From a virus (Duplodnaviria; Heunggongvirae; Uroviricota; Caudoviricetes), in the IMG/VR virus record IMGVR_UViG_2541047887_000006: a DNA stretch of 27,396 nucleotides. The stretch is one strand, 5' to 3'. The position numbers and the translations under genes were made by a program. Under the pieces are notes generated by a model. It was not told where the DNA came from, made no database searches, and worked only from the letters and a program-made list of their open reading frames with translations. This document shows, in pieces, positions 368 through 23,024 of the stretch; the stretch's first letter is position 1; each line of letters starts with the position of its first letter.

Positions 368-1515
<1,148 letters not shown>

Positions 1516-1587: not shown

Positions 1588-1784
1588 GTTGAGAGGTTTG
1601 TAGTGCGTTCAGCAAGCGTCGCAAGGTCGTTTCTTGTTAGCGATAAATCACCTTCGAGCCGCTCAATTCGCCTTTCAAGTTTATCTGACATTCCGCCTCC
1701 ACTATCACCGCCTCCCCCATCGAAAGAATTGCCAATGTCCTCACGAATAAGGGTTATGCCATGCTCACTTTTAGCATATGCCAC
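1588..1784 (-). pseudogene. 5' portion of the IS911-interrupted coiled-coil gene
   Basis: GTG start at 1784-1782 preceded by GGGAGGG 7 nt upstream (minus strand). The track ORF 1572..1784 reads 5 codons into the IS end before stopping. N-terminal region has a Gly/Asp-rich stretch GGGGDSGGG. Confidence 0.55.
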
Positions 1785-2183
1785 TCAGATTCCCTCCCAA
1801 ACTATATATCCTTTGTCTCTTGCCCAACAAACAACTGTGTGGGCTGTATATGTGGATGTGAAGCCGCAATAAGAACATGACACTTCATACCGAGTATTGT
1901 AGATGTTAATGGGCTCGTTCTCCTTGTGTATGGGAGTGACATATTCCCAATCATTTGAATCATCATAATCATCAAGTTCAGGGTCTGTGCCGTGAACAAC
2001 CGTATGTGGAATAAACAAATCTGGGCGCCCACACGAGAGACAAGAGGTTCTGGCTCCTCTATCTTTGAGGAATTGAATAAATAATTTGGGCGAAATCTGT
2101 TGCAGAACCTGCAAATGCCCACGTTCATTATCATTAAGAGACCTGTCTGCATATGGAAAATCATCAAATTTAAGAGGCTTCAT
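1785..2183 (-). CDS. Hypothetical Cys-rich protein (two CxxC motifs, CLSCG and CSYCG); AT-rich cargo gene translationally coupled to int
   Basis: ORF track 1785..2198. ATG at 2183 has GGAG 9 nt upstream; the start lies 11 nt inside the int 3' end. Stop TGA at 1787-1785 abuts the next gene's GTG. Confidence 0.5.
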   Translation of the reverse strand: MKPLKFDDFPYADRSLNDNERGHLQVLQQISPKLFIQFLKDRGARTSCLSCGRPDLFIPHTVVHGTDPELDDYDDSNDWEYVTPIHKENEPINIYNTRYEVSCSYCGFTSTYTAHTVVCWARDKGYIVWEGI

Positions 2184-3162
2184 ATAAGGCATCTCCAAGG
2201 GGATTAAATCTCACCGCATCCTGCAGGTAATCCGGCGCAAGATGGGCATAAATCATCGTTGTCTGAATCTTTGCGTGCCCCAAAATTTTCTGGAGGGTCA
2301 GAATATTGCCGCCGTTCATCATGAAATGACTGGCGAAGGTGTGGCGCAGCGCATGAACAGCCTGGCCGTCAGGAACATCAGGTGCGACCGTTTTGATGAC
2401 ATCGCGAACCAATGAATAATCCAGCGTCGGAAACACCAGTTTCCCGCCCCGTTTTTTGATCTTTTCAAACAGGCTTTCAGAAATAGGAACGGTACGGTTT
2501 TTGCTGTTCTTCGTTTTTGAAAAAGTGATTCGACAATGAAGAACACGGCGCTGCTCCAGTGCCGCTACCTCGCCCCATCGCGCCCCGGTCGACAGAAGGA
2601 TTTCGACAGCCAGCCGTTCATCGGGATTTTCAGCCAGTGCATCCAGCAACTGAACACATTCAGACTTACTCAGGTATCCCATTTCGCGCTCGTTAACCTT
2701 CATTCCTTTAAGGCCTTGAACGGGGTTATCGTTAAGAAAATGGCCGGATGAGATGAGTGCGGTAAACATCGCGCTTAACGCCCCAATCTCTCGATTTATG
2801 GTGCTGGGCTGTATCCCCTGCTCTATCCTGGACACACGTAGCTCGGTGAGCATCGTTGTATTAAGTTTATGCACGCACGGGTCATCCATTGCTTCACTCA
2901 AGCGCAGCAATTTAAGGCGCGTGTTATGCCCTGACTTCATTAGCTGGCCGTGGTATTTCCACCACAAGTCAATAAGCACTGACAGAGGACGGCGATCAAT
3001 AGAGTTTCCTTTCCACTCATTGTTATGCTGTTGCGCCAGCACCCACCGCTCATATAAAACTGCATCCGATTTCGTTTTAAATTTTTTGCGAATGCGTTTG
3101 CCTTTACGCCCCTCAGGGCGCATGTCAAGAAGATACCCTCCCGGAATTGATTTTATGCTCAT
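2170..3162 (-). CDS. int: P2-type tyrosine integrase
   Basis: ORF track 2170..3312; internal ATG at 3162 matches the P2 Int N-terminus (MSIKS... vs MAIKKL...). Catalytic motifs ARWGE, HALRHTFAS, IYAHL. Lies directly downstream of C as in P2. Confidence 0.93.
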   Translation of the reverse strand: MSIKSIPGGYLLDMRPEGRKGKRIRKKFKTKSDAVLYERWVLAQQHNNEWKGNSIDRRPLSVLIDLWWKYHGQLMKSGHNTRLKLLRLSEAMDDPCVHKLNTTMLTELRVSRIEQGIQPSTINREIGALSAMFTALISSGHFLNDNPVQGLKGMKVNEREMGYLSKSECVQLLDALAENPDERLAVEILLSTGARWGEVAALEQRRVLHCRITFSKTKNSKNRTVPISESLFEKIKKRGGKLVFPTLDYSLVRDVIKTVAPDVPDGQAVHALRHTFASHFMMNGGNILTLQKILGHAKIQTTMIYAHLAPDYLQDAVRFNPLGDALYEAS

Positions 3163-3211
3163 TCGTGAAACCCCAGCGTTACAAGACCACCATGCCCCCA
3201 GCGTTCCATGA

Positions 3212-3520
3212 TTAGCCGGGCTGTGTACCAGTCTTGCGGGATTTTTGAGAAGACGATGTGTTTTCTGGCCCATCAGGGGAGAGAGAGGGACTGATCTGCC
3301 CAGCAGCCTCATTTGTTTTTCCCGTCATAAGCCAATTCATGTACTTAAAAAAGCGAGGGTGATTAACAATCTTGATAAGCACTTCGCCCCCTATGTTTTC
3401 AATCCGCCCCGTTTCATAACGACGCAAAGTGCCGATAGGCACATCAATCAGGCCGCAAAATTCTTCGCGCGTTAAATCCTCTGATTCACGAATCACTCTA
3501 ATTTTTTCACCGATAAGCAT
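3212..3520 (-). CDS. C: P2 C-type immunity repressor
   Basis: ATG at 3520 with AGGAA upstream. 102 aa resembling P2 C (EKI...L.R...L.......G.P.GTL..YE.GR ... GQI.P.L...G.....S...QK.G). Confidence 0.85.
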   Translation of the reverse strand: MLIGEKIRVIRESEDLTREEFCGLIDVPIGTLRRYETGRIENIGGEVLIKIVNHPRFFKYMNWLMTGKTNEAAGQISPSLSPDGPENTSSSQKSRKTGTQPG

Positions 3521-3616
3521 TGACAGTGTTCCTATAAGTACACTAAGCTTGCGCACAAGGTGTACTTATAAGTACACCAAGTCACAAACAACCACAGATA
3601 GCGCAGGTTATCACAC
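3521..3616. promoter_or_regulatory. Immunity-switch region between divergent C and cox-like genes, with operator-like repeats
   Basis: Perfect 18-bp palindrome GTGTACTTATAAGTACAC at 3560-3577, plus an upstream direct copy TATAAGTACAC at 3533-3543. TTGACA hexamer at 3520-3525. Promoter assignment itself is inferred. Confidence 0.5.
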
Positions 3617-3895
3617 ATGGCAAAAGTCCTGAACACACACGAACAGGCAGACTTTGAGCGTTTAGCAGCGTTCTATCCCTACCGCGATGAGCATGGGTTA
3701 CCAGTACTTGAAGAAAGCCTGAAAGATTACGCAAAGCGTACCAACCAAGCTGTTAACACAGTGAAAAGACAGGCTGACAGAGGTTCAATTCCCATCAACC
3801 AAGATGAAAAGAACTCAAGACGCACAGTAAATCTCTTCGCTCTTTTCCTGAAAACAATCAGGAGCGCAGAAAAATACGTGCAGATGACAAAATAA
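3617..3895 (+). CDS. cox: Cox-like excisionase / early-promoter regulator (putative)
   Basis: First gene of the rightward early operon, divergent from C, 92 aa. Position and size match P2 cox; sequence similarity is weak. Confidence 0.5.
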   Translation: MAKVLNTHEQADFERLAAFYPYRDEHGLPVLEESLKDYAKRTNQAVNTVKRQADRGSIPINQDEKNSRRTVNLFALFLKTIRSAEKYVQMTK

Positions 3896-3909
3896 CGAGG
3901 TGTCATTTT

Positions 3910-4248
3910 ATGCTGAAGCAACGCCGTAATTTTCGTACCGGAACAGAACGCCACGCTAACCGTTTCACTACCAGTGCATCACGCAGCAACATCCGCTACA
4001 GCCTGAGTGATACACACGCAACGCCGGATAGCTACCCAGTAAAACAAATCGGCGAGCACACCTGGCTGATTGAGAAAGCTGGAATCGTGATCCACAAATG
4101 CCCACGCAATCCGTTTACCGGAAACCGCATTTTTGCATTGAGCTGTGGCGACAATCAGTTCGGGCAGGATTTCACATTATACGAAGCACTTCGCACGGTT
4201 GATCGTCTGCTTCGCGGGCAAAGTTTTATTAAACAGACTGATTTATAA
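3910..4248 (+). CDS. Hypothetical early protein
   Basis: ATG 3910 with GAGGTG 8 nt upstream. ORF track 112 aa. Confidence 0.6.
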   Translation: MLKQRRNFRTGTERHANRFTTSASRSNIRYSLSDTHATPDSYPVKQIGEHTWLIEKAGIVIHKCPRNPFTGNRIFALSCGDNQFGQDFTLYEALRTVDRLLRGQSFIKQTDL

Positions 4249-4258
4249 CAGGTGCTTT

Positions 4259-4546
4259 ATGACCAAAGACCATGCACAAGGTGTATTTATCCGTTTTATT
4301 GATTTTCGCGGTGAACTGTTATTACGTGCATCCGCTATTGACGGAGTGACTCCGGCGGGTAAAAACGGAGCCGACGAAGCCACTTACGTTTATCTGAACG
4401 GCACGCGACTGCTTGTGGAACTTCCGTACCAGACCGTACGAGAAATCATTAGCGAAGCTGAAAAGGCACGCCAGGTTAATGGCGATGAACCCTATATCGA
4501 AATTATTTGTATGGATTCAGAAGCTGAAATACAGAAAGCAGATTAA
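4259..4546 (+). CDS. Hypothetical early protein (95 aa)
   Basis: ATG 4259 with AGGTG upstream. Internal Met of track ORF 4145..4546 chosen to avoid overlap with the preceding gene. Confidence 0.6.
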   Translation: MTKDHAQGVFIRFIDFRGELLLRASAIDGVTPAGKNGADEATYVYLNGTRLLVELPYQTVREIISEAEKARQVNGDEPYIEIICMDSEAEIQKAD

Positions 4547-4557
4547 AGGGCGTTGTG

Positions 4558-4800
4558 ATGGGCAAAGAATATAAAACTCTCATTAACAAAGCACTTGAGT
4601 GTTTTTATTTTCGCTTAAGTGCATCAGGCGCTCATGCTGAACGTGCGGCCCGTGACTCATTGACCAGAGCAATCCGAAGTCTGTATGACGTGGCTTTTTA
4701 CGCTGATGATCTGGATGCACTTAACGAACTTTCCGAGCTGATCTGTGCCGCAGAATGCGGGGAACATATTGAACCGTATAAGCTGGGAAATATCGCATGA
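4558..4800 (+). CDS. Hypothetical early protein (80 aa)
   Basis: ORF track 4555..4800; ATG at 4558. Confidence 0.55.
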   Translation: MGKEYKTLINKALECFYFRLSASGAHAERAARDSLTRAIRSLYDVAFYADDLDALNELSELICAAECGEHIEPYKLGNIA

Positions 4801-4910
4801 GTATATTTATCTCATGGCTTGTTCTGATTATTTCGGTGGTCTGCGCCATTGGGATTATGCGAATTATTAATTCAGTAAAAAAGATTGAACGCTTTTTCAC
4901 TGAAGAATAA
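4797..4910 (+). CDS. Small hydrophobic peptide (37 aa, single predicted TM: MSIFISWLVLIISVVCAIGIMRII...)
   Basis: ATG 4797 overlaps the upstream stop (ATGA). Below the ORF-track size cutoff; translated by hand. Confidence 0.35.
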   Translation: MSIFISWLVLIISVVCAIGIMRIINSVKKIERFFTEE

Positions 4911-4996
4911 CCGCGCAAATAAGACCCCAGGTTAAATAAGAAAATGTGAAAACAATCCGCATTCGCGGAGGTATTCGCACACGCCAAGGAGGCGTA

Positions 4997-5200
4997 ATGG
5001 CAATTAAGCATTTTCCTGTCGTTCGTTTCACCTCCAGAGGACGTGAATACGAAGTTGACGAACGCCTGATTACCACAATCGACAAACACCGTTCAGAAAA
5101 GGATGCACATCACATCTATCTCACTGACGGCACTTACTTCTGCGCCACCAACGTGGTGCAGGTAAATCTTATCAGACAGGTACAGGAGTCACGCAGATGA
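4997..5200 (+). CDS. Hypothetical early protein (67 aa)
   Basis: ATG 4997 with AGGAGG upstream; stop overlaps the next start (ATGA at 5197). Confidence 0.55.
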   Translation: MAIKHFPVVRFTSRGREYEVDERLITTIDKHRSEKDAHHIYLTDGTYFCATNVVQVNLIRQVQESRR

Positions 5201-5955: not shown

Positions 5956-8721
5956 ATGACGGCAGAGTACATCAGGGACTGGCAACAACCGCGCCACGCA
6001 GTGGGGCGTGAAGGAACGGGGATCCCCGCTCCTGAATCCGCGCTTTCCTCCTGGCTGGATGCCTACCGGGTAGAGAACGAGCGCCGCCAGGAAATGGCTG
6101 ATGCGGCGTTCTCCGCAACGCCGCTGGGCAACCTGATTAATAAAAGCCTGGACGCACAGGAAAAACAGGACAAAACCATCACACTGGCAGGAGATGCCAG
6201 AAAACAGGCACGCGGCGCGGTGGATGAAGCCATGGCCTCGCTGCGCCTGCTGCCGTCCTATCTGCGCGATCCGCTTATTCGCCACCTCTCCTTCCTGCGC
6301 AAAAAACAGGAAGCCGATCGTCAGAAAGGCAAAAAGAGCTGGCAGGCTGAACGCTACGCGCGCGGAAACCTGCGCAAAATATTCGAACGTCTGGAGCGCA
6401 CCGATCACCGCTGGCTGACACAGGGTTATCGCTCCCTTGCCGGACGCGAACGCCTGGACGATTTGCTTTACCTGCCGCAGCTCAACAAACACCAGATACA
6501 GACACTGGCCACCATGACGGCGGCGATGTTCAGCAGCACCTTCGAAAAACTCTGCGATGGCTTTGGCGCGACCGATGGCGAACTGACCATGGATGTAACG
6601 CTGAAGGCGTATCAGATGCTGGCCCGCATGGCGTTACACCTGCACGCCATGCCTCCACATTATGACGCACTGACAACAGACAAAGACCGGAGGAACGAAC
6701 CGGACACGGAGCTGCTGCCGGGCGCAATCCTTCGCCTGACCTGTGCAGAATGGTGGAAACGCAAACTGTGGCTGTTACGTTGCGAGTGGAGAGAAGAACA
6801 ACTCCGCGCCGCCTGTCTGGTTTCCAGAAAAACATCGCCCTATCTGAGCCAGGACGCGTTAAGCGAGTTTCGCGCACAGCGCGAGAAAACACGCGATTTC
6901 CTGAAAAGTTTCATGCTGGAAAATGAAGACGGGTTCACGATTGATCTCGAGACAGTGTATTACGCGGGAGTAAGTAACCCGGTTCACCGTAAGGCAGAAA
7001 TGATGGCCACCATGAAGGGGCTGGAACTTCTGGCCGAAGCCCGTGGTGACAAAGCGGTGTTTCTGACTGTCACCTGCCCGTCAAAATACCACGCAACAAC
7101 GGAGAACGGTCATCCGAACCCCAAATGGAACGGGGCCACCATGCGCGACTCCAGCGATTACCTGGTTAACACGTTTTTTGCGGCGGTCCGCAAAAAACTG
7201 AACCGCGACGGCCTGCGCTGGTATGGCATCCGCACGGTGGAGCCTCACCATGACGGCACCGTGCACTGGCATATGATGGTCTTTGCTCATCCGGAAGAAA
7301 TCGACAGCATCGTGGCCATCACCCGCGATATTGCCATTCAGGAAGATCGTCACGAACTGGGCGATGATATTACTCCGCGCTTTAAGGCGGAGTATGTCGA
7401 CGGCTCAAAAGGCACACCAACCAGCTATATCGCGACCTACATCGGAAAAAACCTGGACAGCCGCGCCGTAGATGGCATCGACCCGAAAACGGGCAAGCCA
7501 CGCGTTGACCACGAAACCGAAAAATCAATGGCCGAGAGCGTGGAGCGCGCCATTGGCTGGGCGCGTCTTCATCGGGTCCGCCAGTTCCAGTTCTTTGGCA
7601 TCCCCTCCCGTCAGGTATGGCGTGAACTCCGCCGCCTTGCCAGCCAGATGGCACGCAACCCGGAAGGCCCGCAACGGCTGAAGGATGATGCAATGGATGC
7701 GGTACTCGCTGCCGCTGATGCCGGGTGTTTTGCCTCCTACATTGAAAAACAGGGCGGCGTACTTGTTCCACGTAAAGACTACCTGATTCGCACCGCCTAC
7801 GACCTCGCAGATGAGCTGAACGATTACGGCGAGCAGAGTGTACAGATTTACGGGATCTGGTCGCCGCTCATCGGGGAGTCTTCCCGCGTGTGCACGCACC
7901 CGGATAACTGGAAGCTGGTAAGACGTAAACCGGAAGCGGAAGACAGCGCCCGCGAAAATGGTTTTGACCTTCAGGGCGGCCCTGCCGCCCCTTGGACTCG
8001 TGGCAATAACTGTCCCCGTGTACAGGAAACGGACAACAACGGGACAGAACAGCCGGAAGAACGGCCAGCACCGTGGCCGCAGCTTCCTGACGGCGTTGAT
8101 GTGGATGAATGGATGCGCTCACTGAAACGGCAAGAACGCCGGGCGCTGATGCGTTCGCTGCGTGACAAACAGGCAAAAAACAGCAGTGATGAAATGCAGA
8201 GCTGGACACAGAGCCGCAAACAGCAGCGGCCTTTGCCTGATAACCACGAATTACTCGCTAAAGAATGGCGGGAATCTGCTGAATCTCTCGGCCTGCATAT
8301 CGGTGAACAGCAGATGCAGCACCTGTTACGGGGCGGCAGCCTGTACGTTGACGGCAGCATCATTGCACCGCAGGGATTTGAAATTGTACGCAAACCGGAT
8401 ACCCGCCCGGACAGCCGAATCACGCAGCTCTGGCAGCGCCTGAGCCGTAATCACGGCGTAAGCAGCACGGAGATCCGCCATAACCCGGTCGCCAGCTATC
8501 TGGAACAGCTGGGGGCATCAGACCCCGAAGCCGCCGCACGCATGGTATCCACACTTCAGCAGGACCAGAACACCATGAAAACCCCCGTTACCGTGCTTTC
8601 TGACATGCTGCGCGTCATCCGTGACGCAGAGCACGCACAGAGAATCAATGAAACCACTGAACGCGCACGTCACAAGGCGGGTCTGTTGCAGGACAAAGGC
8701 AATAGCGAGAAGAAAAAATAA
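5956..8721 (+). CDS. A: P2 A-type rolling-circle replication initiation endonuclease
   Basis: 921 aa. HUH motif TVHWHMMVF and tyrosine pair SYIATYIGKN as in P2 gpA. Confidence 0.9.
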   Translation: MTAEYIRDWQQPRHAVGREGTGIPAPESALSSWLDAYRVENERRQEMADAAFSATPLGNLINKSLDAQEKQDKTITLAGDARKQARGAVDEAMASLRLLPSYLRDPLIRHLSFLRKKQEADRQKGKKSWQAERYARGNLRKIFERLERTDHRWLTQGYRSLAGRERLDDLLYLPQLNKHQIQTLATMTAAMFSSTFEKLCDGFGATDGELTMDVTLKAYQMLARMALHLHAMPPHYDALTTDKDRRNEPDTELLPGAILRLTCAEWWKRKLWLLRCEWREEQLRAACLVSRKTSPYLSQDALSEFRAQREKTRDFLKSFMLENEDGFTIDLETVYYAGVSNPVHRKAEMMATMKGLELLAEARGDKAVFLTVTCPSKYHATTENGHPNPKWNGATMRDSSDYLVNTFFAAVRKKLNRDGLRWYGIRTVEPHHDGTVHWHMMVFAHPEEIDSIVAITRDIAIQEDRHELGDDITPRFKAEYVDGSKGTPTSYIATYIGKNLDSRAVDGIDPKTGKPRVDHETEKSMAESVERAIGWARLHRVRQFQFFGIPSRQVWRELRRLASQMARNPEGPQRLKDDAMDAVLAAADAGCFASYIEKQGGVLVPRKDYLIRTAYDLADELNDYGEQSVQIYGIWSPLIGESSRVCTHPDNWKLVRRKPEAEDSARENGFDLQGGPAAPWTRGNNCPRVQETDNNGTEQPEERPAPWPQLPDGVDVDEWMRSLKRQERRALMRSLRDKQAKNSSDEMQSWTQSRKQQRPLPDNHELLAKEWRESAESLGLHIGEQQMQHLLRGGSLYVDGSIIAPQGFEIVRKPDTRPDSRITQLWQRLSRNHGVSSTEIRHNPVASYLEQLGASDPEAAARMVSTLQQDQNTMKTPVTVLSDMLRVIRDAEHAQRINETTERARHKAGLLQDKGNSEKKK

Positions 8722-8901
8722 CCAAGAAAGAAATCATCAATTGTATGAAGGTAGAGTTTAGACATGGTAAGGACGTTCCATGGGGCACACTGTAATTTCA
8801 TATAGTATTCCTCTTCCCTGTTTGATAAAAAAGTGCAATACTATAAATAGTCCAGTTAAATGCTTTTTCAATTCACTTAAAATCAAGAGGTTACAGTTAA
8901 G
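8722..8901 (+). promoter_or_regulatory. AT-rich intergenic region upstream of the ATPase-protease operon; probable promoter
   Basis: 180 bp, noticeably AT-rich. TTGATA at 8822-8827 and TATAAA at 8842-8847. AAGAGG RBS at 8885-8890. Confidence 0.3.
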
Positions 8902-10023
8902 ATGGGCGACTTAGGTGGTATTCAGTCAGATTTAGCCCAACTAGTTAGACTGGTAATAACTGAACAGTATGATGACGTTCGGTTATATGTCGCTCGCTTG
9001 GTGCGTAAATATCGGGAAACTATGCCTGCTCTATCCGAGCAGCTTGATCTTTATCTACGAAATAAACCGCAAAAGCCTGCACAAAGCCTGCGTAAGGTTA
9101 CCGCACCAAAACAAGCGCTGCCTCAAACCATGCCTGTGGACGAGGAGTCAAGGCTTACCTTGCTTAAAGCACCAAATGAAAAGATTGTGAGCAAACCTCT
9201 ACTGTCCAGTCAGATAGAAGACTCACTGGATCAAATTATTCTTGAGCGGAAGCACATCGATCGCCTCAAGACTCTCGGCTTACAACCAACACGCTCTGCC
9301 ATTTTTGTTGGCCCTCCGGGTGTAGGTAAAACACTTACGGCAAGCTGGTTAGCTCAGAAATTAGGGGTTCCTTTTTACGTTCTTGATTTAACGGCAGTAA
9401 TGAGCAGCTATCTGGGCAAAAGCGGAAATAACCTTCGGGCAGCTCTAGATTTTGCGAAGAAAGGGCCGTGCGTTCTTCTGTTAGATGAAATTGATTCAAT
9501 CGCCAAAAAGAGAAGTGATGATTCTGATGTTGGAGAATTAAAAAGACTTGTTACCGTGATACTCCAGGAGGTTGACGAATGGCCGTCTTCTAGTTTGCTA
9601 CTTGCTGCAACTAACTTCGCTGAGTTGATTGATCCAGCACTATGGAGACGTTTTGATTTAGTGCTCAATTTTGAGAAGCCAGATAGCGAAAGTATTAAAG
9701 AAGCAATTAAACGCTTTTCGGGTCCCGACTACGCGATTTTTGCACGTTGGATAGATCTACTGGCTATTATGTTCAAAAATGAATCTTTTAGTAATATTGA
9801 GCGTTCTATCAACAAATTCCGACGTTCGGTCGCTTTAGGTATTTCCTCAGATGAAGAGTTGATTGGGTCGTTCATTAAAGATGGTTTATCAGAATTAGAC
9901 AGGAATGAACGTAAAGAAATTGCAGTTACTCTAAAAAGAAATTCTAAATTATCCCAGCATGCCATATCAGACTTAACCGGAGTCAGTAGGGATACAATTA
10001 GAAAATACAGTCAAAAAATGTAA
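8902..10023 (+). CDS. AAA+ ATPase with C-terminal HTH-like tail; IetA-like by architecture
   Basis: Walker A GPPGVGKT, Walker B VLLLDEID. C-terminal LSQHAISDLTGVSRDTIRKY. 373 aa, first gene of the operon. Confidence 0.8.
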   Translation: MGDLGGIQSDLAQLVRLVITEQYDDVRLYVARLVRKYRETMPALSEQLDLYLRNKPQKPAQSLRKVTAPKQALPQTMPVDEESRLTLLKAPNEKIVSKPLLSSQIEDSLDQIILERKHIDRLKTLGLQPTRSAIFVGPPGVGKTLTASWLAQKLGVPFYVLDLTAVMSSYLGKSGNNLRAALDFAKKGPCVLLLDEIDSIAKKRSDDSDVGELKRLVTVILQEVDEWPSSSLLLAATNFAELIDPALWRRFDLVLNFEKPDSESIKEAIKRFSGPDYAIFARWIDLLAIMFKNESFSNIERSINKFRRSVALGISSDEELIGSFIKDGLSELDRNERKEIAVTLKRNSKLSQHAISDLTGVSRDTIRKYSQKM

Positions 10024-10046
10024 TACAGCATAGATAAGGAGTATGT

Positions 10047-12272
10047 ATGGCGAAAACTAATTTTCTGATTGGACGCGGCGAATTATTAACCAGCGATATT
10101 CCTGGTCCTAAAAGAGTGCCCGGAAAAGCTGAGGTTTATTCTCTTTACGAATCGAAACAACGTTTATTGCCGCAAATTGCATCTACTATAGAAAATTTTG
10201 ATGATTTACCCAGTCAGGCATGTCCTTATGATTATGCTGTGGCTAAGTTGACGTTGAATCCAAGCTATATTGCACGCTCTTTTTTTCCTGCAAAAATGCT
10301 TAAGTCTACCGGGTTAACGTCTATTGGCAGCAGGACGGTAAAAATTACGCCTCAAAGCTGGAAGCGAAAAGTTACTGTGTCAGAAGTAACTACGACACAA
10401 ATGTTTGTTGCTGGTAAAAGAGAATCCTTCAAAGAGTTACCTCATTGGGTGTCAGAACTCAAAGAGTTTTCTGACGAAGCGATTGATTTTGCACGCATAG
10501 AACGGTTCGATGCCTATTTACCCGAAGAGCGTATTATTACCATTGGTGAGCAGGATTCTTCGTATTTTGAGGTTGGTGTTCATTTACTGCCAGATAATGA
10601 ACAAGACTTGGTTCAGCAACAATTTGTTCAGTTTGCATCAAATTTGAACATCAAAGTACATACTTCATTAGCTTTTACCGCTGGTACATTATGGTTCGTG
10701 CCAATCCAGGCCGATAGAATTACTATTAGTAAGCTTGCGAAATTTACATTTGTACGAGTAATAAGACCGGTTCCAAGATTGCGTGGGATTAGACCAATAC
10801 AAAGGAACTACGGTCCTTTAGCTCAGTGTAAATTACCTGCTGAGGGCCCCGTATCTTCAGAAATAAAAGTTGCGATTCTTGATGGTGGTTTACCATCAGA
10901 GCACGCTATATCGCCATGGTTAAAATCCTATAGAGTTTTGGACGATCATGCAGAGGATGATCCAGACGGTTTAGAGCATGGTTTAGCTGTGTCTTCAGCC
11001 TTTTTATTTGGACCAATAAGTAATAAATCGGAAGCGAAAAGACCATACTCTTATATTGATAACTTAAGAGTTTTGGACAACAAGACCTGCCAAGAAGATC
11101 CGCTGGAACTATATCGAACTTTGGGCTTTATTGAAGAGGTATTGTTGTCTCGCCAGTATCAGTTTATCAATCTAAGTTTAGGTCCAGACCTACCAATTGA
11201 AGATACGGAAGTTCATGCATGGACTTCCGTTATTGATGATTTGTTAAGTGATGGTGAAACATTAATGACTGTTGCTGTTGGCAACAATGGAGAAATGGAT
11301 CGCAAGTCTGGTAATGCAAGAATTCAAGTACCAGCCGATTGCGTTAATGCTCTTGCTGTTGGTGCTTGTGATACAGTTAATGATACGGAATGGAAACGAG
11401 CACCATATAGCGCCATTGGGCCAGGCAGAAGTCCTGGCGTGATGAAACCGGATTTAGTTGCGTTTGGTGGTGACACAGACGAGTACTTTCATGTTTTAGG
11501 TAAAGGTAAGAAGCCTGTAATCATACCCCAGCTAGGAACAAGCTTTGCCTCTCCTTACGCCTTACGAGCAGCTGTTGGTGTTCGGGCAATTTTAGGGAAC
11601 GATTTGAGCCTACTAGCAATCAAAGCTTTGTTAATTCATGCGTCAAAACAGCTTGATCATCCTTGTACAGAAGTTGGCTGGGGAAAACTGCCTGAAGACT
11701 TGAACGACATTATAGTCAGCCCTGATGGTGTTGCCCGTATCGTCTACCAAGGTGAATTGAAACCAGGAAAATACTTACGCGCTTCTCTTCCAATACCTGA
11801 AGGTGGCTTGAAAGGTAGAATAAACTTAGCGGCAACTTTCTGTTATGCAACAACCACTGATCCACAAGACCCAGCTTCCTATACAAAAGCTGGTTTGGAA
11901 GTGACATTCCGGCCAAATGATTCAAAAATCAAAGACGGAAAACAAAATGCTGAAACCAAGGGATTCTTTGAACTGGCCAAATATTCAACTGAAAGTGAGC
12001 GACGTTCTGACATGGGCAAATGGGAGACCGTCTTACATAATTCGAAGAACATGCTAGGTTCAACTCTAAAAAATCCTGTATTTGACATTCATTATAACGC
12101 TCGTGAGGCCGGTGCAAGCATAGCCAGCCATAAGGCAGAAAAAATCAAGTATGCTCTTATAATTACCATTAAGGCATCAAAGCACCAAGACCTGTATAAC
12201 GAAATTTTACGTACTTATAATCAGGTGCTCGTGCCAATTCAACCGCAAACATCAATTCCTATTCGTTCGTAA
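10047..12272 (+). CDS. Subtilisin-like S8 serine peptidase, apparently cytoplasmic; IetS-like by architecture
   Basis: Catalytic Asp in VAILDGG, His in EHGLAVSS, oxyanion Asn in INLSLG, Ser in GTSFASPYA, in canonical D-H-N-S order. No N-terminal signal peptide. AAGGAG RBS 5 nt upstream; 23 nt downstream of the ATPase stop. Confidence 0.85.
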   Translation: MAKTNFLIGRGELLTSDIPGPKRVPGKAEVYSLYESKQRLLPQIASTIENFDDLPSQACPYDYAVAKLTLNPSYIARSFFPAKMLKSTGLTSIGSRTVKITPQSWKRKVTVSEVTTTQMFVAGKRESFKELPHWVSELKEFSDEAIDFARIERFDAYLPEERIITIGEQDSSYFEVGVHLLPDNEQDLVQQQFVQFASNLNIKVHTSLAFTAGTLWFVPIQADRITISKLAKFTFVRVIRPVPRLRGIRPIQRNYGPLAQCKLPAEGPVSSEIKVAILDGGLPSEHAISPWLKSYRVLDDHAEDDPDGLEHGLAVSSAFLFGPISNKSEAKRPYSYIDNLRVLDNKTCQEDPLELYRTLGFIEEVLLSRQYQFINLSLGPDLPIEDTEVHAWTSVIDDLLSDGETLMTVAVGNNGEMDRKSGNARIQVPADCVNALAVGACDTVNDTEWKRAPYSAIGPGRSPGVMKPDLVAFGGDTDEYFHVLGKGKKPVIIPQLGTSFASPYALRAAVGVRAILGNDLSLLAIKALLIHASKQLDHPCTEVGWGKLPEDLNDIIVSPDGVARIVYQGELKPGKYLRASLPIPEGGLKGRINLAATFCYATTTDPQDPASYTKAGLEVTFRPNDSKIKDGKQNAETKGFFELAKYSTESERRSDMGKWETVLHNSKNMLGSTLKNPVFDIHYNAREAGASIASHKAEKIKYALIITIKASKHQDLYNEILRTYNQVLVPIQPQTSIPIRS

Positions 12273-12285
12273 TCCTTCAAGACAT

Positions 12286-12316
12286 AATGCCCCTCAATTT
12301 GAGGGGCATTTCTTTG
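12286..12316 (+). terminator. Rho-independent terminator after the ATPase-protease operon
   Basis: 10-bp stem AATGCCCCTC / GAGGGGCATT, loop AATTT, then TCTTTG. Confidence 0.7.
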
Positions 12317-12341
12317 CACAAAAGTGCACAAATTTGCACAA
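12315..12341. repeat. Three direct TGCACAA repeats at exact 10-bp phasing
   Basis: tgcaca at 12315-12320, 12325-12330 and 12335-12340, followed by a T7 run. Confidence 0.8.
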
Positions 12342-12379
12342 TTTTTTTGAACGACTTTTTGCCCTTCCGGCCCGCATGG

Positions 12380-12500
12380 CGGCTGGATCCGTCAAGGATC
12401 CGTGCGTGCACAAAAAACGCGTTTTTCCTGCGCGCAGGTGACGGGGGAACAGCCCGCGTTTCAGGGGGTAAACAGCATTCCCTGAACGATGTCGCAGAGA
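12380..12500. other. Candidate cos region (cohesive-end site) of the P2-like genome
   Basis: Non-coding stretch between the A-side accessory genes and Q. G-rich block GGTGACGGGGGAACAGCCC at 12437-12455 matches 13 of 19 positions of the P2 cohesive end as I remember it. Position inferred, not verified. Confidence 0.25.
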
Positions 12501-12711
12501 CACAACAGAATGGCCATATTTCTCACGCTGAGCATGAAAAAGGCGTGAGGGCTTTTGATTTGATGGGGTGAAAGGTAAGGCCGTCAAAATCGCACTGAGG
12601 CAGCGAGAACATACAGTCAACGCGGTGGAATTGCGTAAGAGTCTGACCGTCGATGGTGGCGATAAACTGGAAGGCGTCGTGAAATTATCTGATTGATACA
12701 GGAGCTGGAGA

Positions 12712-12740
12712 GCCGGGGCATAAATTTTTTATGCCCCGGC
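12712..12740. other. Perfect 13-bp-stem hairpin (GCCGGGGCATAAA-TTT-TTTATGCCCCGGC)
   Basis: Read directly. No U-run on either side, so not a canonical terminator. Confidence 0.6.
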
Positions 12741-12839
12741 GAAGCAGCAGACAAGCGAAGCGCGTCAGCGATACGGCACCTTGCCGACCATACTTCATAA
12801 GTGCAAAATACGAGCAAAGAAATCAATGGAGGCTGTCTT

Positions 12840-13364
12840 ATGGTCATTAATTACAAGCAGTTAAGAGAAAAACGGGAGCAGGTAAAGGAGAGCTTTCGCC
12901 GCAATGAAGATCTGACCCCGCTTGTACGCCTTGCCCAGGGCATTGTTGATGCTTATGAAATCTCGCTGGAGCTGCCATCACAGACCTGGACAGATAGCGA
13001 CGGTAATCGCCAGCATTACGTTTCATGCGGACTGGAAGCAGCCGAAGGATTTCGCAGAATGCCTTTATCCCAGATCCCTGCCGCTACCCCCAAAGCACGG
13101 GGCAGCAATGATGAGCGAAAACTGACTTTTAGTATTGAAACGGTGGTTGACGACACACCTGGCGAAGTCGCGTTCGTGCACACGCCTGTTTCGATCGCAA
13201 TGTATAACGATGAAATACAGGTTCGCGTTAATAATAATATCGTGCCACTTAAAGAAGGTAATTCACCCTACACCACCGTTTGTGAAGCCATTCAATATTA
13301 CGTTCTCTCTGAAATTGATAATCTCAAGCCTGACGGCACCCAGAAAATGGTTCAACTCTGGTAA
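12840..13364 (+). CDS. Hypothetical moron protein (174 aa), convergent with Q
   Basis: ATG 12840 with GGAGG 7 nt upstream. Bracketed by the hairpin at 12712-12740 and the bidirectional terminator at 13370-13395. Confidence 0.6.
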   Translation: MVINYKQLREKREQVKESFRRNEDLTPLVRLAQGIVDAYEISLELPSQTWTDSDGNRQHYVSCGLEAAEGFRRMPLSQIPAATPKARGSNDERKLTFSIETVVDDTPGEVAFVHTPVSIAMYNDEIQVRVNNNIVPLKEGNSPYTTVCEAIQYYVLSEIDNLKPDGTQKMVQLW

Positions 13365-13369
13365 AAAGG

Positions 13370-13395
13370 ACAGCCCCATCACGGGGCTGTTTTTT
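13370..13395. terminator. Bidirectional rho-independent terminator shared by the moron (plus) and the P-Q operon (minus)
   Basis: Stem ACAGCCCC / GGGGCTGT, loop ATCAC, T6 on plus and T5 on minus. The Q stop codon lies in the loop. Confidence 0.7.
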
Positions 13396-14425
13396 CATCA
13401 AGAAGAGCATAAGAGTTAAAACGGATCACCTCTTCGCCAAGCCAGTCATTGATGTGCTTCATAGCCTCCATGACGGGCATCAGCTCGTTAATTGCGTAAA
13501 CCCGCGCTGCCTTCTCCACATCGCCAAACGCACTTTTTTCGCCCGGCATCGCCCCCATCAGTTGCGGCGGAACGCGGTGCGCAGCCAGCACATCATCACG
13601 GGATGCCGCCTTAACATTCATGAATTCATCTTTTGCGGTGATCTGCTGGAACGGCAAAATTTGCACCCCCTCTTTGCCCCCGTTGGGCGCATGAATGAGC
13701 ACGTTTTTAAACGCACCACCACCACGTGCCCCCTGTAGCGTTTCTTTCAGGGAGTCCATGCTTTCGCGGTTTACCTGCGCTGCACCGATGTAGATAATGC
13801 ACCCGGCGTGGGATCCGTTGTCGTAGTACAGTTTTCTGAACATGTCCGCCGAATGAGAAAGGCTGGCCGAGAGTAATGCGCCAAGATATTCCGGCATGCC
13901 GTAGATTTCCTGGTTAATATCCGGATTCATCAGGTGGCACACTTTGCCAGGACGAAACTGAAACGCGTCCTTGCCATCCTGCACATACCACCATGATTCA
14001 AGATCGCTTCCGCGTCGCATGTATTTCGCCAGGGCGTGCCGTAATTTAAGCGGTTCGCCGAGCATATTGCTTCGAAGCTCAAGGAATGCGTTACCGAACA
14101 CAAACCAGTCCAGCGCCAGCGCCGAGAAATCCTGCCGGGAAAGCAGCGGGTGCGGGATGTAGCAACCGAGTAATACATTGCGCTTAAAGTAAAGCGCAGA
14201 CTGATGCCAGGACGTTTGCCGGGCTGCTCTTGCCAGACCGTACCAGTCCACCGGGGTTTCATACCACCGCCCGTTATCAGCACAGTACATATTGTCCAGC
14301 AGGTCATGCCCGGTCAGGCGATAAGGACCATCAAATGTGAATGCACTGAGCGATGATTCTTTCCTGAGCGCATCAGCGAGATCAATGCGTGAACTCATGC
14401 GCACTTTTTTATTTTTTCTGCTCAT
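13379..14425 (-). CDS. Q: Portal protein
   Basis: 348 aa matching P2 gpQ pattern (HNGRWYETPV, FVFGNAFLE, PDINQE, HAG.I.Y). ATG overlaps the P stop (TGATG). Confidence 0.92.
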   Translation of the reverse strand: MSRKNKKVRMSSRIDLADALRKESSLSAFTFDGPYRLTGHDLLDNMYCADNGRWYETPVDWYGLARAARQTSWHQSALYFKRNVLLGCYIPHPLLSRQDFSALALDWFVFGNAFLELRSNMLGEPLKLRHALAKYMRRGSDLESWWYVQDGKDAFQFRPGKVCHLMNPDINQEIYGMPEYLGALLSASLSHSADMFRKLYYDNGSHAGCIIYIGAAQVNRESMDSLKETLQGARGGGAFKNVLIHAPNGGKEGVQILPFQQITAKDEFMNVKAASRDDVLAAHRVPPQLMGAMPGEKSAFGDVEKAARVYAINELMPVMEAMKHINDWLGEEVIRFNSYALLDEKTAP

Positions 14426-21006: not shown

Positions 21007-21148
21007 CCCACCCACATGGGGAAACCTCGGAATATGGGGCGACCGCCTTCTGGATGCACTGGAAACCTGTAACGCGGATAAACGGGCCATTGCTGAACTG
21101 GATAAGAGAATAGCCGAACTGACACACCAGACGGGAGTAACACAATGA
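20867..21148 (+). CDS. o-spanin lipoprotein (Rz1 / LysC-like), overlapping the 3' end of the i-spanin in another frame
   Basis: Lipobox LLTGC and Pro-rich mature region. Alternative GTG start at 20837. Confidence 0.7.
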   Translation: MNAPTLCLTLVLLTGCAGTQNAPGPAPSVRLIPQTLTMPVTPPPFPDPPTWGNLGIWGDRLLDALETCNADKRAIAELDKRIAELTHQTGVTQ

Positions 21149-23024
21149 CCAGTAAGAACTTTGCACTGATTACAGCCATGACACAGGCTGAACTGACTCA
21201 AAAGGTGAATGAACATCTTGCGAAAGGGTGGCATCTTCAGGGGGAGACGCGGGTTGCCTACGAACCCGGCACCCCGTGGTATCTAATGCAGGCAATGGTG
21301 GCCGATGGCACTACAGACATCTCACCTGATTCCCCCCAGCACGGCAGCGTGCCGGAGTGGTATTACGTGGTGGTACTTGCTGGTCAATCCAATGCCATGT
21401 CATATGGTGATGGAATGCCGCTGCCGGATTCTTACGATGCGCCCCACCCACGCATTAAGCAACTGGCCCGTCGCAACACAGTGACTCCCGGTGGTAAAGC
21501 ATGCGCATTTAACGACATCATTCCGGCAGACCACTGCCTGCATGATGTTCAGGATATGAGCGCACTGAATCATCCGAAGGCAGACCTGAGCAAAGGGCAG
21601 TACGGCTGTGTCGGCCAGGGCTTACATATTGCCAAAAAACTGCTTCCGTATATCCCGAATAACGCGGGGATCCTGCTGGTACCATGCTGTCGTGGTGGTT
21701 CGGCATTCACCCAGGGCGCGGAGGGGACATTCAGTGCGGACACGGGGCCAGCCAGGATTCGGCACGCTGGGGTGTGGGTAAACCGTTATACCAGGACCTG
21801 ATCGCACGCACCAAAGCGGCATTACAGAAGAACCCGAAAAATGTGTTGCTGGCGGTGTGCTGGATGCAGGGCGAATTTGACATGAGCGCTGCCACCTACG
21901 CACAGCAACCGGACCTGTTCACGGCCATGCTGAAGCAGTTCCGTACTGACCTTTCCGGATTTAACGCGCAGTGCCATGGCGGCAGTGCTGCAGTTGTACC
22001 GTGGATTTGTGGCGACACGACGTATTACTGGAAAAACACATACGGCACACAGTATGACTCCGTCTACGGCGCGTACAAAAACAGGGAGAGCGACAACGTT
22101 TTCTTTGTGCCGTTCATGACCGACGGTAACGGCAACAACACGCCCACCAACTTACCGGCAGAAGACCCGGATATTGCTGATGCAGGTTATTACGGCGCGC
22201 AATCCCGTAGTAATGGTAATTGGGTATCGTCAAATCGCCCGACACATTTCAGTTCATGGGCGCGCAGGGGCATTATTTCGGATCGCCTGGCAACCGCTAT
22301 TCTGAACGCAGTTGGTCGAACCAGCGCCTTCATCAGCGGTACCGCACCGGAGATTAAACCCTCGCCCGGCGGCGACACTCCATCGGGGCCGTCTGATGGT
22401 GACACATCCGTTCGTACAGTCTCCCTGCTGCCGACAGCCGGAGAGGCTGCTGCGCAGGGCTGGACCATCACCGGCGGCAGTGTTGCGCTGGAAGATGGTG
22501 TGTTTAAGGTTACCAAGCAGAGCAATAAAACCTGGTCCCTGATGCATCCGGTGGATGACGCAGTCTCCCTGCTGACACGGGGTGGCAGACTGAGCTGTAA
22601 GTTTCGACTGTCAGGCGCACTGACCAACAACCAGTTCGGTCTGGGAATTTATCTGTATACCGATGTAGCGTTACCTGACGTCGTGGCGATGACCGGGACT
22701 GGTAACCCGTTCCTGATGTCGTTCTTCACCCAGACCACAGACGGCAAACTGAATCTGATGCATCACAAGAAAGCCGGAAACACAAAGTTGGGCGAGTTCG
22801 GGAATTACAGTAACGACTGGCAGACGCTGGAGCTGGTGTTCACCGCCGGCAGTGCCACGGTTACTCCGAAACTGAATGGAGTGGCTGGACCGGCATTCCA
22901 GGTCATAAAAGACAGTCTGACACTGGGGCTGAATGCACTGACGCTGACGGATATTACCAAAAATGCAACGTATGGCGTCGATATCGGCAGCCTGGTGCTG
23001 GAAATCAATAATCCCGCAGCATAA
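21145..23024 (+). pseudogene. NanS-p-like sialate O-acetylesterase (DUF1737-like N-terminus, SGNH/GQSN esterase, C-terminal lectin-like domain), split by a frameshift
   Basis: Track ORFs 21145..21801 and 21684..23024 overlap in different frames. GQSN motif VVVLAGQSNAMSYGDG. Frame switch maps to the G4 run at 21744-21747; one extra G would read ...SADTG-ASQDSARWGVGKPLYQDLI... Confidence 0.6.

Follow-up and report, generated by a model that had tools for sequence, protein, structure and literature searches.

IetAS systems couple an AAA+ ATPase, IetA, with an S8-family peptidase, IetS. In the system of Gao et al. 2020, which is represented by the PADLOC IetA and IetS profiles and by the NCBIfam models IteA (NF042959) and IteS (NF042956), the ATPase gene precedes that of the peptidase, a protein of about 740 amino acids (aa), and the same order is found in the gene pair described here, which lies in a 27,396-nucleotide (nt) stretch of Escherichia coli prophage DNA (IMG/VR record IMGVR_UViG_2541047887_000006; this whole stretch is referred to as the window). 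The earliest description of IetAS, as cited in PMC13069673, was that of a plasmid-stability toxin-antitoxin (TA) system, which is reported to stabilise pTiC58. PMC13069673 itself assigns the toxin role to IetS and the antitoxin role to IetA, and reports that defence by ietHAS needs the protease and that an ietA mutant was unclonable; it states, in April 2026, that how IetAS acts against phages is still unknown, and the remark in a first-pass annotation of the window that such ATPase-protease pairs are poorly understood therefore still holds. In Bacillus cereus, ietAS acts by abortive infection with the SPbeta gene yosG as the trigger (10.1101/2022.08.27.505566), and a mycoplasma subtilase related to IetS is toxic in E. 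coli (10.1101/2021.01.21.427616). The system is common; a collection of porcine enterotoxigenic E. coli, for instance, has it in 35 strains.

The cos-proximal region between gpA and gpQ of P2-like prophages is a defence hotspot (Rousset et al. 2022, PMC9122126). In Table S5B of that study the combination 'Peptidase_S8 | AAA', labelled 'ietAS (Gao et al, 2020)', is the seventh commonest system of the hotspot with 400 occurrences, while Table S5A lists in the P2 gpA-gpQ hotspot the exact protein trio of the window (WP_000502620, WP_001556981 and WP_000236495). The arrangement in the window is thus already known, since the same trio appears in Table S5A and since the family is caught by standard defence-annotation hidden Markov models. 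The locus represents one more confirmed case of P2-like prophage defence cargo in the cos-proximal hotspot, a finding that is neither surprising nor new; its wider value lies in the IetAS family itself, which is common and of unsolved mechanism (PMC13069673).

We consider it likely that the ietAS pair of the window is horizontally acquired cargo of a P88/P2-like (Peduoviridae) E. coli prophage and that it acts as a TA-like abortive-infection module. Family membership and cassette anatomy were established in the present analysis, whereas the reasoning on toxin, antitoxin, trigger and abortive infection is borrowed from the literature on IetAS homologues of other lineages. The details added here are the prodomain-like modules and the C-terminal beta-sandwich of IetS, the placement of IetA in the classical AAA+ clade with an invariant helix-turn-helix (HTH), and a conserved extended -10 element; the modules of IetS and its Arg-rich linker, the HTH and linker motif of IetA, and the promoter offer concrete handles on the IetAS mechanism.

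The IetA and IetS proteins and their relatives

The two genes of the pair are as follows:

8902..10023, + strand: gene 1, ietA, ATG start, 373-aa AAA+ ATPase
10047..12272, + strand: gene 2, ietS, ATG start, 741-aa S8 subtilase, predicted to be cytoplasmic

In the first-pass annotation, gene 1 had been read as a Walker A/B AAA+ ATPase and gene 2 as a 741-aa S8 peptidase with a complete D-H-N-S catalytic set and no signal peptide, the two being either IetAS-like or a distinct ATPase-protease system. Each of these protein descriptions was borne out, and the profile matches support an identification as IetAS, rendering the alternative of a distinct system unneeded. IetA matches PADLOC profile PDLC02196 from end to end (1e-77; residues 9–372 on positions 5–370 of 374), together with three other PADLOC IetA models (2e-72 to 7e-41), while IetS matches PDLC02197 over its full length (1.1e-51; residues 36–726 on positions 38–733 of 749) as well as six other IetS models. 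With 373 and 741 aa, the proteins are of the same sizes as the IetA and IetS profiles (374 and 749 positions), and their catalytic residues are intact. Judged by its sequence, the pair at 8902..12272 is an IetAS-family ATPase and protease module. The IetA/IetS proteins also fall into PHROGs families of unknown function, namely phrog_3757 (4e-133) and phrog_3964 (4e-255).

IetA was divided into four regions:

residues 3–53: three-helix bundle
residues 55–95: linker
residues about 103–330: AAA+ module
residues 334–372: C-terminal three-helix HTH

The Pfam AAA domain covers residues 134–258 (2.6e-30), and the Walker A (GPPGVGKT, residues 137–144) and Walker B (VLLLDE, residues 191–196) motifs, as well as the second region of homology (ATN...DPALWRRFD), are invariant in the homologue alignment, as are HTH residues S362–K368. 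By sequence and fold, IetA is closest to Cdc48/p97, FtsH and the proteasomal Rpt subunits, Foldseek with the AlphaFold2 (AF2) model (predicted local distance difference test score 74 overall, below 50 in the linker) returning p97/FtsH/Rpt structures at E of about 1e-12; IetA is a classical-clade AAA+ ATPase, this being the unfoldase-type clade. A secondary match was obtained to PADLOC TRIP13 (2e-15). A sequence search of the PDB identified no solved IetA or IetS, only p97/Cdc48-type AAA proteins and subtilisins (E about 1e-4). Within the low-confidence linker, the motif PVDxxSRLxLLK (residues about 77–89; window 9130–9170) is invariant, and it is recognisable in a sister IetA lineage of 43% identity as MPVDGDSRRNLLQE; this motif could serve as a docking or pseudo-substrate motif for IetS.

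IetS likewise consists of several modules:

residues 63–156 and 173–241: two beta-alpha-beta-beta-alpha-beta units
residues about 237–253: Arg-rich linker
residues 271–546: S8 domain
residues about 560–725: C-terminal beta-sandwich

The S8 domain corresponds to the Pfam Peptidase_S8 match (2.5e-19), and across 34 homologues there is no variation at its catalytic residues D279, H311, N413/N414 and S499. The linker contains the invariant residues R237, R240, P243, L245, R246, R249, P250 and R253. No hydrophobic segment was found at the N-terminus, the maximum Kyte-Doolittle(19) value being 0.18 in the first 40 windows of the scan and 1.54 protein-wide; lacking a signal peptide or membrane segment, IetS is predicted to be cytoplasmic, and the idea of a secreted protease was rejected on the same grounds. 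The AF2 model of IetS is confident for residues 30–240 and poor in the catalytic core, and active-site geometry and contacts between prodomain and active site were left uninterpreted owing to this unreliable core. The modelled N-terminal modules appear prodomain-like in that they resemble the (I9-like) prodomain of subtilases, with generic ferredoxin-like folds scoring similarly, and the C-terminal part of the model appears to match beta-sandwich domains. Homologues of IetS with 65–77% identity occur in beta- and gamma-proteobacteria, among them Serratia, Photorhabdus, Morganella, Pantoea, Burkholderia, Nitrosomonas and Stenotrophomonas.

Among the described relatives, the ietAS lineage of Rousset Table S5B shares with the window the hotspot, the two domains and the C-terminal HTH of IetA, yet its IetA is only 43% identical to that of the window over 298 residues and constitutes a separate sequence lineage. 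It is listed as S8 followed by AAA, which would fit a reversed orientation in the slot. At least two IetAS lineages, with IetA proteins of 43% identity, therefore use the same P2 slot. The AAA+/S8 pair of the Agrobacterium plasmid pTiC58, which from its annotation and PADLOC matches would represent the IetA/IetS toxin-antitoxin first described by Yamamoto et al. 2009, also has the ATPase before the protease (with a gap of 3 nt), and like the window pair it matches both PDLC02196 (IetA) and PDLC02197 (IetS), the AAA cores being 35% identical (1e-41). The two pairs differ in that the pTiC58 ATPase is of 328 aa and lacks the C-terminal HTH (profile positions 2–322 of 374), in that its S8 protein is of 836 aa, and in that the pTiC58 pair is plasmid-borne whereas the window pair is prophage-borne. 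The ietHAS system (Liu-DS4; Nucleic Acids Research 2026, PMC13069673) has IetA-like and IetS-like components in common with the window cassette, but it requires an additional SNF2-family helicase, IetH, and no helicase gene lies in or adjoins the cassette. An identity with ietHAS was rejected, as promoter and terminator enclose only two genes, next to which lie gpA and the gene for a 175-aa protein of the backbone.

Cassette anatomy, insertion site and distribution

The cassette, its control elements and its flanking genes are located as follows:

8693..12314, no strand assigned: ietAS cargo cassette with its own promoter and terminator, delimited by BLAST breakpoints and a G+C content (GC) of 41.1% vs 56–58% in the flanks
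8801..8845, + strand: inverted repeat TATAGTATT (8801–8809), 27 nt, AATACTATA (8837–8845); putative candidate operator
8834..8842, + strand: extended -10-like element TGcAATACT, predicted from conservation, with a conserved TAGTCCA after it (8848–8854)
12286..12316, + strand: intrinsic terminator of the ietAS operon, an 11-bp G+C-rich stem AAUGCCCCUCA/UGAGGGGCAUU with a U-rich tail
5956..8721, + strand: left-flank gpA replication endonuclease (Pfam Phage_GPA 3e-131), backbone
12840..13364, + strand: right-flank 175-aa protein WP_000236495 of unknown function (phrog_5091, 1.8e-67), backbone
13379..14425, - strand: portal protein gpQ (annotation of the identical region in NZ_CP053296), backbone

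The first-pass annotation had outlined a unit at 8722..12316 made up of an AT-rich promoter region, two co-directional genes 23 nt apart and a strong terminator, with a lower GC than the flanking phage genes, and had placed it in the variable-cargo and defence hotspot of P2-like phages. All of this agrees with the present data, and its coordinates nearly equal the limits obtained by comparison. In BLAST alignments with prophages of the same backbone carrying other cargo (L002 with ParM/StbA and L003 with Dam and an AAA protein), homology ends at 8692 or 8678 and resumes at 12315 or 12313; because of these sharp breaks, the cassette limits were set at 8693..12314. The cassette has a GC of 41.1%, whereas gene A on its left has 57.6% and the late genes on its right have 55.6%. 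For the 180 nt preceding ietA (8722–8901) the value is only 33.3%, and the GC at third codon positions is 32–36% in ietA and ietS vs 64–69% in the phage genes. In composition, the ietAS block is foreign to the prophage.

The two open reading frames (ORFs), ietA and ietS, lie 23 nt apart on the + strand and share a single terminator, and Shine-Dalgarno-like sequences precede both ietA (AAGAGG, 8885–8890) and ietS (AAGGAG, 10036–10041). The terminator stem spans 12286–12310, directly past the ietS stop codon, and is followed by TTTCTTTG. Its hairpin is predicted to fold with -25.3 kcal/mol (z = -5.6 vs shuffles), none of 200 shuffled sequences folding equally well; a simple pattern scan for terminators missed it, and folding against shuffles recovered it.

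A consensus promoter scan upstream of ietA returned only weak -35/-10 candidates. The comparison of promoters was based on an alignment of eight upstream regions, that of the window included, seven of which retain the pattern TGnn-A-T/C-A-A/C-T, reaching as far as Stenotrophomonas. In seven of the eight regions TAGTCC(A/G) follows the -10-like element; the Salmonella variant (L015) reads TAGCCCA, and in Nitrosomonas (L007) TAGTCCA is found at another place in the upstream region. Five enterobacterial cassettes also share a second conserved upstream block, ACTGTAAnnnnATATAG. It is predicted from this conservation that the ietAS operon has its own conserved promoter with an extended -10 element. 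The inverted repeat upstream of ietA, whose half-sites and spacing are the same in the orthologous cassettes of Serratia (L004) and Enterobacter (L016), is a candidate operator. A strict palindromic operator was weakened as an idea, given that only the closest orthologues keep the repeat and that elsewhere the conserved positions come in blocks overlapping the -10 element.

The cassette lies between the Phage_GPA gene and the portal gene, the slot of Rousset et al. 2022 (PMC9122126). The P2 genes old and tin occupy the same cos-proximal gpA-portal slot and share the ecological role of prophage exclusion cargo, although their proteins and mechanisms are unrelated to ietAS. Beyond the gene for the 175-aa protein come those for the portal, the terminase, the GPO scaffold and the P2-family capsid, together with the remainder of a P2-like late region. 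The gene for WP_000236495 adjoins the portal gene with ParM/StbA cargo and with Dam and AAA cargo alike, and its product has no match to PADLOC defence profiles or Pfam; this gene belongs to the prophage backbone and lies outside the ietAS system. P2 itself is not known to have a gene at this position. In Rousset Table S5A, WP_000236495 occurs 167 times, with various cargo. Between the cassette and this gene, positions 12315–12800 form a conserved non-coding part of the backbone with a strong hairpin GCCGGGGCATAAA/TTTATGCCCCGGC at about 12712–12740. The 19-mer cos sequence of P2 is absent from the window at up to three mismatches; the linear record of the Xuanwuvirus phage P884B11 starts at window position 12360, 45 nt past the cassette, and this start may mark cos.

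The cassette is 100% identical to that of E. coli M1/5 (NZ_CP053296) and, among 5,426 complete E. coli genomes, was found in 44, each time on the chromosome. Full-length, uninterrupted copies with at least 99.6% nucleotide identity account for 41 of the 44, the others being one copy of 84.8% identity, one in which IS5 interrupts ietS (H122, E. coli E06) and one that is truncated (H148, E. coli 7-27 20A). Additionally, an ietS of 90% identity on a 607-kb record of Enterobacter hormaechei (H56), which belongs to the plasmid collection, contains an IS3 element (ISEc52). At least one flank is present in 1447 complete E. coli genomes, 42 of which contain this cargo, and many of the others have different cargo there, ParM/StbA partition genes or a Dam methylase with an AAA protein being found between the same flanks; the gpA-portal slot has conserved flanks and interchangeable cargo. 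When 50,697 phage records were searched by megablast, the cassette gave no match, and relatives of the backbone, the nearest being P88-like phages of the genus Xuanwuvirus, were found only with the flank as the query.

In all eight loci compared (E. coli, Serratia, Enterobacter, Photorhabdus, Morganella, Salmonella, Nitrosomonas and Stenotrophomonas), ietA lies immediately before ietS, and the spacing between them ranges from -4 to +30 nt. The orthologous cassettes of Serratia and Enterobacter likewise lie in a P2-like gpA-portal slot, and those of Photorhabdus (L013, 3857–7226) and Morganella (L014, 2126–5495), whose IetS is 73% identical and which have CoiA-like nuclease genes alongside, lie in integrase/AlpA/Ash/Bro-N islands resembling P4-like satellites. 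These satellite-like islands indicate that the ietAS cassette moves between helper-phage and satellite-like elements. Furthermore, the Nitrosomonas pair adjoins an insertion sequence (IS) element, the Stenotrophomonas pair shares a small island with genes for an SLFN-like helicase and for MazG, and ietAS homologues occur on 49 plasmids.

Proposed mode of action and rival explanations

In the mechanism that we propose, IetS, as a cytoplasmic subtilase, would be the toxic effector, and IetA would keep it harmless and hence be antitoxin-like. A phage-encoded or phage-induced trigger would lift this restraint, whereupon the freed IetS would cleave cellular and/or phage proteins and arrest growth before the phage cycle is completed, an abortive infection that would protect the lysogen population and hence the prophage. 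As modelled, IetS appears to be built like a zymogen, and its activation would probably proceed via release or processing of the N-terminal region. By analogy with TRIP13, which keeps the HORMA proteins of cyclic oligonucleotide-based antiphage signalling systems (CBASS) off, IetA is likely to hold IetS, or to remodel it, at the expense of ATP, and its C-terminal HTH probably autoregulates the operon at the conserved promoter as type II antitoxins do. The TRIP13/Pch2 ATPase of HORMA-TRIP13 CBASS is an AAA+ negative regulator of a defence effector pathway, as is suggested for IetA; the window, however, holds neither a HORMA protein nor a cyclase, and the effector would be a subtilase, such that the likeness is presumably one of logic only.

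A more specific version, which we regard as rather unlikely, places a double lock on the IetS zymogen. The I9-like prodomain modules would form one lock and IetA the other, with IetA unfolding or stripping early-matured IetS at the expense of ATP and repressing the operon through its HTH, and a phage factor blocking or titrating IetA would then set off a burst of proteolysis that cannot be reversed. Under this version the inactivation of IetS would be irreversible, because a subtilase without its prodomain cannot refold. If true, this would be a new way of regulating a defence protease, and IetAS would gain its first mechanistic model.

Several observations weigh against the TA-like abortive-infection reading or its components. 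Cloned E. coli ietAS from strain ECOR52 had limited activity alone (Wu et al.); ECOR52 is not among the 44 complete genomes with the cassette, and its system may or may not be of the window lineage. The NCBIfam models IteA and IteS were the top matches of the two proteins, yet at 223.3 and 135.3 bits against equivalog cut-offs of 510 and 900 bits, respectively. These scores, far below the cut-offs, set the window lineage apart from the lineage behind the models, and NCBI-named IteS proteins are only 24–28% identical to the IetS of the window. However, the pTiC58 ATPase (198.8 bits) and the IetA of the Rousset-labelled ietAS (253.1 bits) fall short with the IteA model as well, and missing its cut-off is therefore uninformative on family membership; the IteA cut-off, to judge from these scores, marks one narrow lineage and not the whole IetAS family. 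Similarly, IetS gave no significant BLASTP match to the pTiC58 S8 protein (E = 0.01), and as the two cannot be aligned in this way, the IetS 'family' would comprise divergent lineages, of which the window carries one. The symmetry of the putative operator is lost in the more distant orthologues of the upstream alignment. Finally, the pore-loop-like motif of IetA, S-Y-L-G at residues 169–172, is S-L-L-G in most homologues, and the replacement of its aromatic residue Y170 by Leu weakens the unfoldase idea for IetA.

It is unlikely that the system serves mainly in prophage addiction or stabilisation, killing or arresting cells that lose or silence the prophage, with an anti-phage effect that is secondary or absent. 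Such a role would accord with the first description of IetAS, as cited in PMC13069673, as a plasmid-stability TA system, with the homologues on 49 plasmids, with the ParM/StbA partition (maintenance) genes that very often occupy the same slot and with the limited protection conferred by cloned E. coli ietAS alone (Wu et al.). The segregational loss of an integrated prophage is nevertheless rare, the gpA-gpQ slot is enriched in defence systems, and the phage protection given by IetAS homologues works through abortive infection and has a defined phage trigger. Stabilisation and defence are plausibly compatible rather than mutually exclusive roles of ietAS. The preferred reading of a TA-like abortive-infection module also has to be set against a two-component ATP-dependent protease following ClpXP-like logic, in which IetA would unfold substrates such as phage proteins for IetS and act as an activator or specificity factor rather than as an inhibitor. 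The strict synteny of ATPase and protease, the position of IetA in the classical AAA unfoldase clade (Cdc48/p97, FtsH, proteasomal Rpt) and the pore-loop-like S-Y-L-G are in keeping with this possibility. Against it stand the Leu found in most homologues in place of the pore-loop aromatic and the predicted prodomain-like regulatory modules that IetS itself bears. We know of no subtilase (S8 family) that is a chambered, self-compartmentalised protease, which also counts against a ClpXP-like arrangement. With published genetics in which IetS is toxic without functional IetA and ietA mutants are unclonable (PMC13069673), we regard this explanation as very improbable.

That the cargo is decaying or inert, or is a moron encoding a secreted protease without a role in phage defence, would be suggested by the IS5-interrupted and the truncated E. 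coli copies and by the IS3 insertion in the related E. hormaechei copy. Both ORFs of the window are intact, however, with all catalytic and nucleotide-binding residues present and with a conserved promoter and a terminator of their own, and 41 of the 44 copies are full-length and uninterrupted. Furthermore, 65–77% identity is retained across beta- and gamma-proteobacteria, and IetS has no signal peptide or membrane segment, which makes this explanation the most far-fetched of those considered, with hardly any probability left to it.

Other features of the prophage

Outside the ietAS cassette, the following features were located:

368..1186, - strand: transposase ORF of the IS3 family; the IS3-like element abuts the prophage end
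2170..3312, - strand: integrase
3212..3556, - strand: HTH repressor
3910..4248, + strand: DUF4761
21145..21801 and 21684..23024, + strand: second cargo gene, two overlapping ORFs between the lysis and tail genes

Apart from a 3.4-kb block (1588–5025) that is absent from M1/5, the window and E. coli M1/5 are collinear. As M1/5 is without this integrase/repressor block, its version of the same prophage appears to be IS-adjacent and left-truncated. The second cargo gene (21145–23024), which has no PADLOC match, encodes a DUF1737 domain, a SASA-type carbohydrate acetylesterase domain and a DUF6645 domain and is annotated in M1/5 as a frameshifted pseudogene; from its domains, it looks like a NanS-p-like prophage esterase.

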